Source of the DNA: Vermamoeba vermiformis | Lineage: Eukaryota | Assembly (NCBI GenBank): GCA_045837725.1 | Contig: JBEWZL010000276.1 | Span: forward strand, 372,001 to 436,000 | Reading direction: 5' to 3' | Length of the DNA: 64,000 nucleotides | Part shown: positions 15,585-35,978 of the stretch, in pieces | How positions within the stretch are numbered: position 1 is the stretch's first letter | Layout of the letters: the number at the start of each line of letters is the position of its first letter | Program-made: the position numbers and the translations under genes | Notes under the pieces: model-generated | The model's database searches: none | The model's input: only the letters and a program-made list of their open reading frames with translations | What the model was told of the DNA's origin: nothing

Positions 15585-17148
15585 ATGGAATCCGTTCCTC
15601 CCCCACCACAAGACGCTACAAAGAAGAGTGAAGCTGATAAGGAAGCTGAGAAACGTCAATACATCGCCGACTGTTGGGCCAAAGAAGAAGCGCTAACTCT
15701 TGAACAGCGTAGACAACGCTATGCAAATGCGAATTTTGTAACTATCAAAGAGATTGCCCCGTGGACAATTCAGCAGATCAGCGCAGGTAATTCAACTTCG
15801 AATTCTAATTTAAAAATTGAATTTTTCACTCGTTTATTTATACATTAATTTAAAAATGAGTGATTCATAATTCTTCATAAAACAGAATTAATTTGAGCGT
15901 TTTCAATTTTTTCTAATTTTTCTAAATCAATCCCTTGTTATAATTTTATGGATCGCACTAAATAATTATTAGGTCTTGTAATATATTCTTCACTTCCCGA
16001 CTCATTGAAGGGTCAAATGAAGTCATCAACTGAAGTTCTCGCCGATCAACTTAATAATCTTAAGGTGGAAAAGACTGAGACTCCCAAGGTGATTACCAAG
16101 ATTAAAATTATCTCTAATACGACTATTATTTATCGGTCATAATATTAGGAGACCGACTACAAGCCCAACGCAGAACTCAACAGAAAAGTGTGCACTTGGC
16201 GAGGAAACAGTAAGGAGGAATCAGATTTAATGACGTTATTATTAACGACTATGATTTATTAGTCACTACACTGGAGATCGACGCCATTGTCAATGCTGCG
16301 AACAGATCTATGTTAGGCGGTGGAGGAGGTATGTTGCACGAGTCACAGCGACGTCCTATATGCTGCAGTACTTTTGAGACACTAATCAATCGTGTGTAGT
16401 CGACGGTGCCATTCACGACGCAGCCGGCAATCAATTATATCTTGAATGCAAGCGACACAACGGTTGTGCAACTGGTGACGCGAAGATTACTCGAGGTACG
16501 CAGCTGTCATCTCATTCAATGCTTCAATAACGCTAACCCTTAACAATAGGCTATGCTTTGCCTGCCAAATGTAAGTTACTTGTGCAATTGAAGTTGCAGA
16601 TGAGGCCAAGAATTAACGTGCGGCAGATGTCATTCACACTGTCGGACCGATCGGTGAAATCCCTGACAAGTTGGAGAGCTGTTACAAGCGATGTTTGGAC
16701 ATTGTGGCCGAGCGCAACATTCGCACCATTGCATTCTGCGGTGTCAGCACTGGTATCTATGGTTATCCGCTCTACGCTGCTTCACGGTACGTGCTCGTTA
16801 CCTGAACGCCCTGTCAGGCACTAAATATCTCTTAGAATTGCTCTTAAGACTGTTCGTGAGTGGTTAGAGACGGGTGACAACAAAAACAAAGTAGATCTGA
16901 TCATTTTCTGCACATTTTTGCCGCGTGAGGAAACCTGTTACATGGAATTACTCGCTGAATATTTCCCTGCAGTGCAAGACAATGAATTTATCGAGAAGTA
17001 TGACAAAGAGAGGAAAGAATTTGCATCTGAGCTCGAGCAGTTAAATAAGATCAGATCCGATCTGGCAAAACGAGATCCACGGAGCGTTAGAGAGGACTAC
17101 CCTGATATCTCGAGCGACGATACTGACAGCGACTCCGATGACTTCTAA
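15585..17148 (+). CDS. Macrodomain ADP-ribose glycohydrolase (MacroD1/2-like)
   Basis: Spliced motifs [55 protein letters not shown] and [14 protein letters not shown]. Confidence 0.92.
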
Positions 17149-17341: not shown

Positions 17342-18927
17342 ATGGAGGTAAGAATTGCACATCTGAATAGGCGAATTAATCCAAACCAATTTTATATAAC
17401 TGCACATAACATATAGTACAATTTAATTAACCAATATCAAATATTGAAAATTGAGTTTTTACCAACAATATTTTTGTTATTCGGAATTGAATTCACACGT
17501 AATCTTCGTTTGCTGCGTAATACTGACCTCATATAATTTTTTCAGCCTCATAATCCCGTTGTATTACAATACCCCGACCTATTGCTTCCTTATTTGCAGC
17601 ACTTCGGAGTTGGCTTAGCTGCCGGTCAAGACTCGTCAGAACCGCCTTTAGAAAAGCTAATAACACGCATATTTATCAAGCTACCAATACCAGTACGCAA
17701 TTTCATTACCAACTCGCAACACATTCTTGCTGAAGAAGACTTTGAACGCCACAAATTACACGTAGCTAAGCGGATTGGCCAAGAGTTTCTGGATTCAGGC
17801 TGTGCGCGGTGGGCAATCGGTAAGACTCACACGGGCAGTAAAAATTAAGAACGGCGAGTCTAAAATACCACAATTAAATTTTTGAGCATCAAGACCAGCG
17901 AGATAAATTTTTGTCGCTGTGTACACGAGGAATGGACCAGTAGCTCAAAGTAGAGCCCTCGCCTGCCCTTCGGGGTTAACGACTGACTTCCACAGGACAC
18001 TGTTTGGATTTCCAGAAGTTTCTAGTTATGTAATACGAGTGGTTGCATGTTCGAGTCATGCCTGGTCCAATTTCTTTTTTGCCGCTCGCTACCTTTAATT
18101 TATTTATTATTTGCTAAACAATACTAATTCTTATAATTGTTGTTTAGATCAAATGTGGCCGCAGTGGGTAGATCTGCGTGAATCGTACCTCGATGGACTC
18201 GCAGCGTTCAACTACCCTTTTGCATTCTTCTCTGGCTTTGCTTGTGGCTTCTGTTACCTGTTCCTCAAAGGAGGCTTCAAGCGAGACGGCAAGAAGAAGA
18301 ATATACAACTCAATGCTAATGTAGAAGCCATTCAAGAGTTCAAAAAGAGCAGATCTGTCGCGGAGTTCTGGCCTCGTGTGCGCAACATGCTGGGCCACCT
18401 GGGCTTTAGCTACGTGTTCTTGAAGTACCCTCGACAGCTATTCGAGACTATTTTCCCTAAATTCTTATTCACATTCCACGTACGATCACAACAACTCGGC
18501 ATCAACTTTGGATTCAGCTTGTCAGATGCGCTCTCAACGATCGGCCCTATCTTGTCTTGGTCACGTGGCATGTTTGCAATGATCACACTATTCGAGATGT
18601 TCCAATCTCACGCTGAAGAGAGCGAAAGAAAGCGGCTTAGAAGCAATGCAACCAGCGCAGATCAAAACCTCGTTGTCTGAAGAGGATCTGAAGCACCCGC
18701 ACATTGATGAATTCGAAGTCGTGCAGCGCGAGGTCCACAACCTCGTCGTGCAAGTCGTAGGCCAGCGCACAATCAAAGCAGTGACCGTGTTTTGGCCGTT
18801 CATGAAACACATGCTTGCGATTCAATGGCGGTTCTCACACGTGCGCAAGTTCTCGCGGGCAAAAATTGGCGCTATGGGACCACTAAACTTTTGGATTTGG
18901 ACTGGCTTTGCTTACTTTAGCTACTAG
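17342..18927 (+). CDS. Uncharacterised protein with hydrophobic segments; host gene of the intronic tRNA-like element; apparent +1 frameshift at ~18638
   Basis: ATGGAG/gtaag first exon, exon ~17546-17819, intron 17820-18148, then ORFs 18111-18680 and 18646-18927 that join with a single-base shift. Confidence 0.5.
17934..18069 (+). tRNA. tRNA or tRNA-like gene with a ~65-nt insert in the anticodon loop; isotype ambiguous (Gly-GCC if the intron is canonical 37/38, GTA if non-canonical)
   Basis: Acceptor stem GGACCAG/CTGGTCC + A. D arm GCTC-AAAGTA-GAGC. Anticodon stem CTCG/CGAG. 5-nt variable loop. T arm GCATG-TTCGAGT-CATGC. Downstream T-run (Pol III terminator-like). Confidence 0.7.
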
Positions 18928-31393: not shown

Positions 31394-34300
31394 ATGAAAG
31401 GTAAGTACGCCTTCGGTTGGAAATACGGCAAGATCTGATCGGTTTTATTTTTTAGCAGCGGCATTGATATTTTTGGTTGTGCTTTTATTGCCGTTTATAA
31501 AAGGTAGTAAAAATAATTATGCATTTTATTCGTAAAACTTACGATTTAATTCAGCGTGTATGTCGGATGTATTTAGTTTGCCAACAGCAGTGCACGGATT
31601 AGCCTCAGCAGTGGTAGACGATACAATTTATTTTGCTGGAGGAGCTACTGGAGGCTGGAATATTCAAACTCCCTTGGATCATATCGACATCTACAACACA
31701 ACTTCAAAGACATGGTCGCAAGATCAGTTAAGCATTCCGAGGACTTATTTAACGCTATCAAAAGTCGGTCATAGACTAGTTTTTGCTGGCGGTGCCTCAC
31801 GACTAGGCGATGGACCAGCGCTGCCTTCAACGCGCATTGACATTTTTGACACGTTAACACGCACGTGGTCCACACTCGAATTGAACGAACCAAGATTTGC
31901 CCACGTGGCAACGACATACGGAGACAAAGTTTTTGTCGCTGGCGGCTTGGTGGAGCTCGGTGGCTCAAATATGATTACAGTGGACTCCGTCGAGATGATA
32001 GACCTCGCGACCAACAACGTGAGCATCATTTACAGAATGACCACGCCCAGATACGCCCAGTCATCGGGCACTGTCATGGACGTCGTCTTCTTCGCGTCTG
32101 GCCGTCACCGAATCAATGTCAATGTGCCCGAAGTGTTCATGTACAACGTCACCGCGAACGAGTGGCGTGTTGAAATGTTGCCGCTGGCTCGCACGTACAC
32201 TTCAGCAGCTGTGTACGGCAAGAAGATTTACATTGCTGGCGGATGGGTTCAAAACTTGATCGCGACAAACAGAGTTGACATATTTGACATTGAGACGTGG
32301 CAGTGGAGCGACCCAGTTCTGTTGGAATCGGCGCGCGGTCTCATGTCCGCTGTAGTCTTAGACACGAAGATTTATCTCGCTGGCGGCATTGGTGTCCTGT
32401 TTGAATCACTCGTGGACGTGATTGATGCCGAGACTGGCGAGCGACTGTCAATTCGATTGAAAGAACCACGTGCCATGATGACAGCACCCACTGACGGCAA
32501 ACGAATTTACTTCGCTGGTGGACTCGTCAATGAATTCTCCAACTCAGATGTGATCGAAGTGTTTGACTCGCACGGCATTATTGATGAAATAGACATGCCT
32601 CGTGCTCGAACAAACTTCGCTAGTGCAACGGCCAATCAGCTCGTCTTCTTCGCTGGAGGCACATTGAGCGATGGAAGTCGCACGGACTCTGTGGACATTT
32701 ACGACGAGCGAACCGAACAATGGCTTCGAAGCACGACTTTCAGTACCTCGTGCGGGCAGTCATCTCTGCGGTGCTTGGTCCTCGAGTGTTCTTCATTGGT
32801 GGCGTTGACAGCGCGAATAATTCGGTAGCAGCAATTGACATTTACAACACTTTGACGCGCCAGTGGACCACCGCACAACTGTCTCAAAGCAGAGTCCAAT
32901 TCAGCGTAGTGACTGACAACACGAGCTTGTACATTGCAGGCGGTGCATTGATCTTCGGCGATCGAGCTTCACCCGTGTCAGACGTGGTTGACATTTACGA
33001 CAGCAGGACGAATCGCTGGACCACAGCTAAGCTGAGTGCTGCACGCTCAAGAGTGTCTTCATTCGTGCACCAGTCAGTCGTGTTCTTTGCAGGAGGATCA
33101 AGTGAATATAAAATGAACGACGAAGTGGACATTTACGGCACTATCACCAACACCTGGACCGTGGCTCGATTGCGCATTGGACGTGCGGCCATTGGAATTG
33201 GTGCGGTGCTCAATCAGGTGGTGTTCGCAGGAGGACTACTCTTTGACGACTTTTCAACGCGTGCTATGGATATTTACGACACAACCACCGGTCAATGGAG
33301 ATTTTCACAGCTGACAGTCCCGCGCTTTGATCTTTCAGTACTCACCTTCAGCAATTACTTGATCATTGGCGGTGGCATTGGAAACTCCGTGGCGACAGTT
33401 GTCGAGGTCTACAACGCCGACACTGGCGTGCTCACGGACTCGAGAATTCTATTGACTAGGCACAACACGCTAGTAGTAGCGATGGGCAGTACATTTATCT
33501 TTGCCGGTGGATTCTTCATCAGCGGAGGCAGAGAGCGATTGGCACAGTCGAGCGCGATTGAAGTGTTCGATACCAACTCAGCTGGTGCGTTCTCGAGCTA
33601 TTTTTTGAGCAAAAACATCACCTGGAGGCACGCAGTAGTGTCGCACAACAAGATTTATTTCAGCGGCAACGACTACGCCAAGATGAACGTCATGGTGATG
33701 CCTTCGATGGAGCGATTGTTAGCCAGTCAGCAACAGTTCTTAGGAAGACAAGTGACGTTCAACGCCACAGTCCTGGGACGAGGCATCACCTACTCTTGGA
33801 CGCACAATGACGAGCGAATAGCAAATGTCACGGGCTCGAGCTACACGATCGACGAAGTGACCACAGACTCTAATGGCCTGTACACGCTCACTGCTGTTGA
33901 CATGTGTCGCAATCGAGTCCTGTCCTCTGCTCAGCTCGAAGTGTTAATTGCGCCCACATTCGCTGAAGCCACTCTTCAAGACACAGTCGTGCTGTGTGGC
34001 AGTTCGGTGACGTTGAGCGCACCTGCTCGAGGAGTCGACGTTCAATACGAATGGTACTTCGATGAGCAGCAACAATTCAACTTCAGGCACGACATGACAG
34101 TCCAAGCCCCTCCAAGCTCTTGTGATGCCAGCCATCGTGTGTGCATCATAGCAACTAATCCTGCGGGCGCGACTGCAATGTGTGCCTTGCTGCGAATGTC
34201 TTCGTACAACAACGTGTTTGACGGTCCGACTGTCGCTAACAACAGACCTTCGTGGCTCTTAGGCGACAACGCGGAGATTTCCGTGAATCTTCTCGATCCT

Positions 34301-35978
34301 CTTTGCACTTCACACGAGTGGCGCAAGAACGGAGTCGTTGTGCAAACTGAGACCGGCACGAAGAGCACCCTGGTCGTGAAAGTCGGTTCCAGCACTGACT
34401 CAACGACCTACTCCGTTGTTGCTTACTGTGGTGCCCCTGTGGAGTCACGCCCTGTCAAGCTGGATGTGGTTTACTTGTATTGGTGGGGTGTGCTGCTCAT
34501 CGCTCTATCCTGCGCTGGTGCAATTGCTGGCGGCATCGTGGCATTTGTGCAGATCCGCAAACGATTCCAAAACAAACAAGAGCGCGAACAAGAGTTGAAA
34601 GAGCTGCTAGACGATGCTAAACGAGCGGTTATTAATACATCAAGCACCACCGACTCCGTGATCAATGTGCGCAGGTGGGAGTGGATCCCCGATGACAATT
34701 ACCGCTACGTACCGGTGTCTGACTTGCCGTTCGCTATCGACACGACCAATGTGCTCTTCTTGAAGAAAAATCAACAATTAGAGATTGGTATTTGCATGCA
34801 AGGCGATATGATCTTCGCGTTCAAATCGACCAAGAACAGCAAAACACCGTCATCCCTCAAGGAAAAGCTCCTGAGGCGGTCCATGCAAGTCTCAATTTAT
34901 CCTCCGCGCTCGCCCAAGTATGAAATGACCGTGGACCCGCAACACTTCGCCATTGGTCCTGACGATGAAGTGCGCGTGCTCGTGTCACTGACGATGAAAA
35001 TGACGACCAAAGCGAAGATCAACTTGATCATTGGACTTGAAGAACAGGAGCTCTATTCGGCCATCGAGTTCAATGTGGCCAGTAAAATATCACCGTGGAT
35101 TGACGCTGATGAAGTCATTATCCAAGGAGATCCGATTGGCATGGGAGGGTACGAATCCAATTTAATTTCAAGTTTTTGTAAGCTTTACTTACGTTCGTCT
35201 ATCTAGATTTGGCACGGTCTCGAAGGCTACTTATAGAGGCCAAGAAGTTGCTTTCAAGAAGTTGCGCGTACAGGAGCTCGATCCGTCAGCTAAAATTGAG
35301 TTCGAACGCGAAATTGATTTGATGATGAATCTGCATCACCCTAATATCATTCAATTCATTGGTGCCTCTCGCGTCAAAGGATCTCTCGCCATTCTGACTG
35401 AATTTGCACCGCTCGGCAGTCTCGAATCCAGTCTGAAGAAAAAACGGCTCAATTTGCACCAGCAGATTATCGTCTTGTACGAGGCCGCTAGAGCGCTGCA
35501 ATTCCTTCACGCGAATAATATTCTGCATCGCGACATCAAGCCTGAGAACCTCCTCGTGTTCTCGTTGGAAATTTCAGCGCCCGTGCACGTCAAGCTAAGC
35601 GACTTTGGCACTGCTCGCTTGGTATCAGATCAACCAAGTACAATGACCAAAGGAGTAGGAACACCACTCTATATGGCCCCTGAATTGTTTGGCAAGCAAG
35701 GTTACTCGCGCAGTGCTGATATATACAGCTTTGGAATGCTCATCTGGTCCGTCATGCATCAGCAAGAGCCGTACGACTCATCCGAGTTCCAGTTCCCGTG
35801 GGACGTACCAAACTTTATCAAAGCAGGCAATCGTCTCGCCATTTCAGAGGAGATATGTCCTGCTGATATCGCGCAGCTCATACGCGAGTGTTGGCAACAA
35901 GAGCCAGTCGATCGACCGCAGATAAGTCAAGTCGCGCAACAACTCGCAAATTTCCTGAAAAATATTGGTAAATATTAG
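31394..35978 (+). CDS. Receptor-like TKL kinase: signal peptide, ~14 kelch repeats, 3 Ig-like domains, TM, juxtamembrane domain, kinase
   Basis: Signal exons MKAAALIFLVVLLLPFIKA. Repeated hh-F-AGG...DIYD...W....LS.PR. Ig-like YSWTHN...GLYTLTA, YEWYFD and HEWRKNG. TM WWGVLLIALSCAGAIAGGIVAFV. Kinase HRDIKPENLL, DFG, GTPLYMAPE. Two +1 shifts at ~32725 and ~32755. Confidence 0.85.

Follow-up and report, generated by a model that had tools for sequence, protein, structure and literature searches.

Which 65 bases are removed from a tRNA gene whose anticodon loop carries a long insert, and which tRNA, if any, is left? The question is raised by a stretch of 64,000 nucleotides from Vermamoeba vermiformis (assembly GCA_045837725.1, contig JBEWZL010000276.1, positions 372,001 to 436,000 of the forward strand), called the window below; all coordinates are those of the window and all features described lie on its + strand. 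Within an intron of a protein gene, on the same strand, the window contains a 136-nt gene at 17934-18069, including the discriminator base A18069. A preliminary description, made from the sequence alone, had seen there a tRNA-type gene with an intron-like insert in the anticodon loop. Rfam family RF00005, ARAGORN and a list of the base pairs agree on this point, and the locus is a genuine tRNA-type gene with a large insert in its anticodon loop. We class it with the intron-containing nuclear tRNA genes, a known kind, although some of its features are atypical. The account we put forward, tentatively, is that of a nuclear gene of RNA polymerase III (Pol III) type, belonging to a heterogeneous family of about six loci and carrying a 65-nt protein-spliced intron in the anticodon loop.

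RF00005 covers model positions 1-71 of 71 and scores 45.1 bits, against a gathering score of 29, with 69 inserted bases in place of four loop positions. The E value is 1.4e-08 for a search of 401 bases and 2.3e-06 for the whole window, where this is the only RF00005 match. The absence of any other such match in 64 kb places the tRNA far above chance. ARAGORN reports the gene when introns are allowed. With option -i it returns Tyr(GTA) with a 65-nt intron and a score of 105.8; with option -if, which fixes the intron between positions 37 and 38, it returns Gly(GCC) with a score of 104.3. ARAGORN at default settings and an Rfam scan with default filters both miss the gene.

Two exons are common to all readings of the locus, according to the pair list and the RF00005 alignment. 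The 5' exon (17934-17964) comprises the 5' strand of the acceptor stem, U8 and A9, the D arm, C26, the 5' strand CTCGC of the anticodon stem, C32 and T33. The 3' exon (18035-18069) comprises ACGAG, the variable loop TGGTT of 5 nt, the T arm GCATG-TTCGAGT-CATGC, CTGGTCC and A73. The acceptor stem (17934-17940/18062-18068), the D stem (17943-17946/17953-17956) and the T stem (18045-18049/18057-18061) are perfect, as had been stated, with 7/7, 4/4 and 5/5 Watson-Crick pairs. The anticodon stem (17958-17961/18036-18039) has four pairs, followed by C17962 opposite A18035, which is indeed the C:A mismatch at 31:39 reported earlier. Thus, 20 of the 21 stem pairs are Watson-Crick. The positions of the tertiary pairs, read off the alignment, are also retained (U8/A14, A15/U48, G22/G46, T54/A58 and G53/C61). 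The T loop TTCGAGT, which provides the T54 Psi55 C56 side of the elbow, is standard. On the other side of the elbow, the D loop AAAGTA contains a single G in place of the usual G18 G19, in line with the conserved GG having been noted as missing. An alternative cloverleaf with a CCTCG/CGGGG anticodon stem, a 9-nt loop and a 69-nt "variable arm" was rejected because that arm varies between paralogues and because the covariance model favours CTCGC/ACGAG.

The organization is that of a type-2 Pol III gene. Sequences resembling the A box (TAGCTCAAAGTAG) and the B box (GTTCGAGTC), as judged against the usual consensus of these elements, are at the expected places. The downstream T-run singled out in the preliminary description is a run of six T (18075-18080), 5 nt past the discriminator, which we take to be the Pol III terminator. 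No run of four T occurs anywhere in the 136-nt gene or its insert. A 63-aa open frame also runs over the tRNA gene (17907-18095, +) and gives 16 HMMER matches to long repeat proteins, the best with E 1.4e-15. These matches result from many weak repeat matches summing up and are attributed to chance. The idea that they are translated paralogues was therefore rejected; a word-index search found none. Such matches are a pitfall for automated annotation.

The insert and the loop around it can be divided into three parts. The first is a hairpin, GCCC-TTCG-GGGT (17965-17976), closed by a C-UUCG-G tetraloop; it is found both in paralogues and in the ensemble constrained to the cloverleaf, where its stem has an unpaired probability of at most 0.11. 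Its first three nucleotides are the anticodon GCC if the intron is removed at the canonical site. The second is a domain (17977-18028) present in the minimum-energy and centroid folds, with a closing stem TAAC/GTTA, a stem GACTTC/GAAGTT and two inner hairpins, ACAG-GACA-CTGT and TGG-ATTT-CCA. The third is a single-stranded linker, T-GTA-AT (18029-18034, unpaired at 0.90-0.96), ahead of the 3' strand of the anticodon stem. Its GTA, at 18030-18032, is the anticodon if a tyrosine tRNA is made. C32 (17963) is unpaired at 0.97 in the constrained ensemble. Imposing the cloverleaf costs 0.2 kcal/mol (-42.1 instead of -42.3). The preliminary description had called the insert strongly structured. All the helices it listed are in the minimum-energy fold, but the 65-nt insert folds at -16.8 kcal/mol with a z score of -1.18 (20 of 200 shuffles equally good), which is no better than shuffles; the whole 136 nt have a z score of -1.65 (13 of 200). 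The wording thus lacks statistical support, and the fold is plausible, not exceptional.

Other identities for the insert were considered. In 17800-18200, with E values up to 10, the sole Rfam match other than tRNA is to an antisense RNA, at chance level (E 1.7; 25.8 bits against a gathering score of 59), and in the whole window, with E up to 0.01, nothing besides tRNA is matched. The proposed analogy with Y RNA or vault RNA thus finds no counterpart in these scans, and a snoRNA or a riboswitch was rejected for want of a credible Rfam match. A mobile or repeated element was discarded as well: the window holds no second copy of the insert, the best stray match being 12 nt long, and the insert borders show no target duplication beyond a shared TG. 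At 65 nt the insert is too short for a group I intron. For a spliceosomal intron, no GT..AG borders that would restore the loop were seen by eye.

Excisions that leave a 7-nt anticodon loop give four possible loops. Cuts up to 34/35 leave CTGTAAT, with the tyrosine anticodon GTA. A cut at 35/36 leaves CTGCAAT, with the cysteine anticodon GCA. A cut at 36/37 leaves CTGCCAT, with the glycine anticodon GCC and A37, and the canonical cut at 37/38 leaves CTGCCCT, with GCC and C37. Two of these outcomes had been anticipated, and both were recovered. Canonical splicing gives the loop CUGCCCU, with anticodon GCC and C37, on a body whose acceptor (G2:C71) is not that of glycine. Removal of 17966-18030 gives CT-GTA-AT, which is the Tyr(GTA) call with a 65-nt intron made by ARAGORN in its free mode. 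On the spliced forms, ARAGORN gives 113.3 for the CTGTAAT, CTGCAAT and CTGCCAT loops and 111.8 for CTGCCCT. These differences, like that between 105.8 and 104.3 for the unspliced gene, are too small to decide the register.

In published work, eukaryotic tRNA introns lie between positions 37 and 38 and measure 6-133 nt (PMC4090602; the upper limit also in PMC10275265), a range that includes 65 nt. The intron generally pairs with nucleotides of the anticodon loop, and this helix is extended by a pair between C32 or U32 and the antepenultimate purine of the intron, which gives a bulge-helix-loop (PMC10275265). This anticodon-intron pair is needed for the 3' cut by the Xenopus, yeast and human enzymes, and the cut sites are positioned by the mature domain (PMC8479045). 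Animals, fungi and Amoebozoa likely share an asymmetric ruler-type enzyme, and eukaryotic tRNA finders consider canonical introns only (PMC10485636). In the canonical register of the present gene, position -3 relative to the 3' cut is occupied by U18031, which faces C32 (C17963), so that no anticodon-intron pair is formed; the nearest G (18030) is at -4. Bases 34-37 (GCCC) pair with the intron GGGU, and U17969 and A18033/U18034 are unpaired at 0.93 or more. A helix between loop and intron is therefore present, but its pairing segment is at the 5' end of the intron. A bulge-helix-bulge was sought in all 8 registers and both orientations: the central helix never exceeds 3/4 pairs, and the two flanking helices are never both present.

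The identity of the tRNA body was compared with tabulated types. In Table 1 of PMC9023262, metazoan Gly tRNAs have a 4-nt variable loop, a GU.C D stem and C2:G71, and metazoan Tyr tRNAs have C1=G72 and a GCUC D stem. The gene departs from Gly(GCC) by C37, its 5-nt variable loop, G2:C71 and its GCUC D stem, although the last three are metazoan marks whose relevance to a distant protist is uncertain. Compared with Tyr(GUA), it has A73 and an intron, but its first pair is G1:C72 instead of C1:G72, as the preliminary description had objected, and GUA is exposed as the anticodon only by a non-canonical excision. Every eukaryotic tRNA-Tyr gene studied has an intron according to PMC10275265, and in Entamoeba histolytica introns are found in 42/42 Tyr(GUA) genes and 0/43 Gly(GCC) genes (PMC8718801).

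Relatives of the gene were found in a DNA sequencing run bearing the same species label (X1), whose contigs were compared with 17700-18300. The locus itself corresponds to two records, 1 and 4, with a depth of about 231-258. About five further loci match 17934-17976, that is the 5' half and the hairpin, and then diverge. Copies of a tRNA-derived, SINE-like repeat would be expected to share the whole element and to bear marks of retroposition; these loci share only this segment, and neither poly-A nor a target duplication is seen at the gene. Records 3 and 5, with depths of 957 and 846, amount to roughly four loci. They have one extra A in the D loop, with no second G reported, and a different continuation after GGGGT, over at least 80 nt. 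In record 2, a single locus at depth 212, GCCC is preceded by an additional T, and 32 nt contain 2 further differences. D loops across the family are thus 6 or 7 nt long. We estimate about six loci in total, because summed depths inflate the copy number through overlapping contigs. The preliminary description had considered that the gene might prove an ordinary intron-containing tRNA-Gly with many similar copies. The Gly call of ARAGORN -if and the sharing of the 5' half by about five loci go in this direction, but the gene is not an ordinary tRNA-Gly.

The 12-nt hairpin GCCC-TTCG-GGGT is identical across three diverged paralogue lineages. Beyond it, the continuation of the main paralogue group can be aligned by eye with the insert of the window at about 19/25 identical positions, after six unalignable bases. 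In this alignment, also made by eye, the counterpart of ACAG-GACA-CTGT is ACAA-GAAA-TTGT, which amounts to one compensatory pair. The 3' half of the window gene lies in a single X1 unitig unique to the locus (record 4, 17947-18080, 0 differences), and no other X1 locus aligned to it. Divergence of the 3' halves at the other loci, or much longer inserts there, may account for this. Both the main paralogue group and the single variant locus carry a run of four T (GTTTTCAC) about 20 nt past the hairpin, where the window reads CTTCCAC. If such a run terminates Pol III in this organism, the paralogues bearing it would yield an RNA of about 60 nt made of the 5' half and the hairpin. No second copy of the tRNA gene is present within the window, and exact-pattern scans with the 5' half plus hairpin, the 5' half and the 3' half gave 0 matches in public metagenome, genome and viral contigs.

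Between the window and X1, the 136-nt gene shows no difference, compared with a divergence of about 5% in its flanks. The host intron has 3 differences in 114 nt upstream of the gene, and 6 and 7 differences per allele in 78 nt downstream. The probability of 0 differences in 136 nt is about 0.001 at the pooled flank rate and about 0.02 on a count restricted to substitutions. Within the 65-nt insert, about 3 differences would be expected for the 0 observed (p ~0.04). Strain identity of the gene between divergent flanks is modest evidence for constraint on both gene and insert. The upstream differences (two 1-nt deletions and one G>C, at 17925-17930) are all within 9 nt of the first tRNA base; the 5' leader is variable while the tRNA gene is invariant. 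In the downstream part of the host intron (18070-18147), X1 has two alleles, with depths of 151 and 121, each differing from the window at 6-7 places. The T6 run is intact in both. The two divergent alleles suggest that the organism is heterozygous or diploid and that the X1 haplotype differs from that of the window. RNA-seq was also searched: three runs bearing the same species label, about half of the reads of each being covered, gave 1, 3 and 1 reads on 17700-18300, all beyond 18225 in the downstream exon and without joints. The libraries are mRNA-type cDNA (poly(A)-type), so this silence says nothing about the tRNA.

Our tentative preference goes to the canonical cut between positions 37 and 38, which would give a tRNA with GCC and C37. 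This cut is favoured as the sole mechanism known for such organisms. It is also favoured by the predicted 4-bp helix between GCCC and the intron, which would place the 5' cut in its loop and thereby form the helix-loop part of the standard arrangement, and by the hairpin, which appears to be conserved as an exon would be. Identity of the hairpin in three lineages, while the intron that follows has diverged, fits a role in splicing. Whereas the gene, its fold and host intron, its paralogues and its identity between strains are established, transcription, the sites of cutting and any part in translation are inferred. Starting from the internal promoter, Pol III would transcribe the gene as far as the T6 run, and the transcript would be trimmed at its ends. 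The tRNA splicing endonuclease, measuring from the tRNA body, would cut after C37 (17968/17969) and before U38 (18033/18034), and a ligase would join the halves at ...CUGCCC/UACGAG. GCCC-UUCG-GGGU would supply the helix and loop of the usual bulge-helix-loop, bases 34-37 forming pairs with the intron and the 5' cut falling at the loop edge, and the 52-nt second domain would be an expansion on the bulge side. The product would be a 71-nt tRNA with loop CUGCCCU, anticodon GCC and an unusual C37. GCC reads glycine codons. Because the body lacks the hallmarks of glycine, the tRNA may be a minor or non-standard one even if canonically spliced.

Several observations weigh against this preference. 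The 37/38 register has no anticodon-intron pair, with C32 opposite U18031 and unpaired. Position 37 is almost always a purine in tRNAs, and the C37 product is the one scored lower by ARAGORN (111.8 against 113.3 for A37 loops). The body is unlike metazoan Gly tRNA in its 5-nt variable loop, GCUC D stem and G2:C71 (PMC9023262; of uncertain relevance to protists), and none of the 43 Gly(GCC) genes of the one amoebozoan tabulated in PMC8718801 has an intron. One of the two conserved D-loop G (G18 G19) is missing, and a 3' half common to no other X1 locus is unusual for a working multi-copy tRNA family. A mainstream role is made less likely by the single D-loop G, the mismatched C31/A39 and a family that is heterogeneous.

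The gene could instead encode a tyrosine tRNA with its intron ahead of the anticodon (33/34), an outcome that we consider possible though unlikely. Cuts at 17963/17964, 17964/17965 or 17965/17966, each with the matching 3' cut, give the same product, with the junction ...CGCCU/GUAAUACGAG and the loop CU-GUA-AU. The choice of sites would then depend on some rule other than the eukaryotic ruler (with its anticodon-intron pair) or the archaeal bulge-helix-bulge. The sites might be defined by the way in which the insert folds on itself, as two hairpin domains stacked with their ends together, and the minimum-energy fold does close the insert exactly at these borders. The resulting loop is a textbook one, with U33 and A37, and GUA is single-stranded in the precursor (at least 0.9). 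Together with the last intron base the precursor reads U-G-U-A-A, which we take to be the recognition motif of the pseudouridine-35 enzyme and count in favour of a tyrosine tRNA. By post hoc arithmetic, the chance of finding GUA plus a purine in the five bases before position 38 is about 1/128. ARAGORN in free mode prefers this solution (105.8 vs 104.3; spliced 113.3 vs 111.8). Since tRNA-Tyr genes always bear introns, in the eukaryotes covered by PMC10275265 as in Entamoeba histolytica (PMC8718801), a family of intron-bearing loci is what a tyrosine tRNA predicts. The GCUC D stem and 5-nt variable loop also fit the tabulated Tyr type (PMC9023262). On the other hand, there is no bulge-helix-bulge, the central helix having 0-2/4 pairs in the tyrosine registers, and the literature cited shows no such nuclear position beyond red algae, nucleomorphs and some green algae (PMC4090602, PMC10485636). 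A search of open-access text returned no amoeba-like eukaryote with an intron placed 5' of the anticodon. G1:C72 contradicts the C1:G72 of eukaryotic tRNA-Tyr (PMC9023262), the exon-like conservation of the 12-nt hairpin would require a new explanation, and the missing G18 speaks against a mainstream essential tRNA.

Quite unlikely, in our view, is a relic derived from a tRNA gene: a paralogue, diverged or carrying an insertion, that no longer gives a working tRNA and whose transcript, if there is one, is not productively spliced or is degraded. The joint departures of the gene would be explained in this way: the single D-loop G, the C31/A39 mismatch, the lack of a known splice signal and the poor fit to either isotype. 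So would the heterogeneity of the family, with D loops of 6 or 7 nt, one locus with an extra T and 2 substitutions in 32 nt, and the unique 3' half. The host gene is itself frameshifted relative to the protein of a related organism (P0001, see below). These points are opposed by a body that keeps 20/21 Watson-Crick stem pairs and its tertiary-pair positions, by the identity of all 136 nt between strains whose flanks differ by about 5%, by an intact terminator and an insert free of T4 runs, and by the compensatory change in the inner hairpin of the paralogues, which hints at selection on the insert but concerns one pair only.

That the 136-nt Pol III transcript is itself the end product, an unspliced tRNA-like non-coding RNA whose tRNA scaffold presents the hairpin and the second domain, is highly unlikely: an insert as invariant as the tRNA body (0/65 nt where about 3 differences were expected, p ~0.04), a hairpin conserved among paralogues and the lack of a known splice signal would suit it, but no read of the mRNA-type RNA-seq runs falls on the gene, the only other Rfam match in 17800-18200 is at chance level (E 1.7), the insert folds no better than shuffles and the post-hairpin sequence varies between paralogues as an intron would. 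The rest of the probability goes to other excision registers.

The canonical intron-bearing tRNA genes of eukaryotes, such as those of tRNA-Tyr(GUA) and tRNA-Ile(UAU), processed by the TSEN/Sen endonuclease and a ligase, are the closest known system. The present gene resembles them by its cloverleaf, its single insert in the anticodon loop, the pairing of loop bases with the intron, the length of 65 nt, the Pol III features and the multi-copy state. It differs by the lack of an anticodon-intron pair at 37/38, the C37 product, the loss of one of G18/G19 and the position of the anticodon-pairing segment, at the 5' end of the intron and not beside the 3' cut. If a tyrosine tRNA is made, the gene would be comparable to those of Cyanidioschyzon merolae and of cryptophyte and chlorarachniophyte nucleomorphs, whose introns may be away from 37/38 in the anticodon stem-loop (PMC4090602). 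Introns of C. merolae are reported there to depend on a bulge-helix-bulge, absent here from all 8 registers, and the present host looks like a non-photosynthetic microbial eukaryote. Archaeal bulge-helix-bulge introns are also protein-spliced tRNA inserts, possibly structured and long, but the 3-4-3 motif is absent here and the gene lies within a eukaryotic spliceosomal intron. Nematode nev-tRNAs, whose anticodon is unlike their charging identity (PMC3333845), recall the combination of GCC with a non-glycine body that canonical splicing would produce. They belong to class II, with a long variable arm, and lack introns, whereas the present gene has one. The tRNA gene is an independent Pol III unit within an intron transcribed by Pol II, and both share a strand. 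Nesting of tRNA genes in introns of protein genes is common in animals, and the nesting as such is unremarkable.

The host intron is spliceosomal (17820-18147, GT..AG, 328 nt), and exon 2 begins at 18148. It was delimited with P0001, a 339-aa protein of a related organism, with identities of 83% over the upstream exon and 93% over the downstream exon. With tblastn, residues 1-82 of P0001 match 17582-17824 and residues 79-246 match 18141-18644. P0001 runs uninterrupted over the splice junction (...GWAI-D-QMWPQW...), which shows that the host intron is real. The intron given in the preliminary description as 17820-18148 is therefore upheld, with an end one base earlier. No Pfam family was found in the exons of the host gene. 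Relative to P0001, the host gene passes directly from frame +3 to frame +1 at 18637-18644, nothing lying between the two. Because of one additional base (CGGCTT-A-GAAGC), the old frame runs into a stop at 18678-18680. This is either a true frameshift of the strain, possibly making the gene a pseudogene, or an assembly error.

Two other genes of the window were noted. The upstream neighbour (16214-17148, +) consists of several short exons and has a Macro domain (PF01661, E 1e-14) on the exon 16617-16805. A large gene (32624-35978, +) encodes Kelch-like repeats, a membrane segment and a C-terminal tyrosine-kinase-like kinase domain. In the kinase search, the nearest named matches are Entamoeba kinases, at 30-45% identity. 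The closest relative of the large gene, 89% identical, is found on an 8.9-kb JGI contig, which indicates that genomic DNA of a close relative is present in public metagenomes.

Eukaryotic tRNA introns are held to be strictly located at 37/38, with an anticodon-intron pair. As the eukaryotic gene finders discussed in PMC10485636 assume this position, exceptions go unseen, and genes such as the present one are overlooked by default ARAGORN and default-filter Rfam scans. Here, a conserved multi-copy gene of tRNA type gives, in the assumed register, an implausible product without the anticodon-intron pair and, in another register, the textbook loop of tyrosine, the one isotype whose genes always carry introns. 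The outcome is either an ordinary, slightly degenerate intron-bearing tRNA that pipelines would label Gly, or a new choice of splice site. If a tyrosine tRNA is made, the splicing machinery of this organism would use a site rule not yet described, perhaps reading the C-UUCG-G hairpin at the 5' edge of the intron, and its tyrosyl-tRNA synthetase would accept a first pair of bacterial type (G1:C72).

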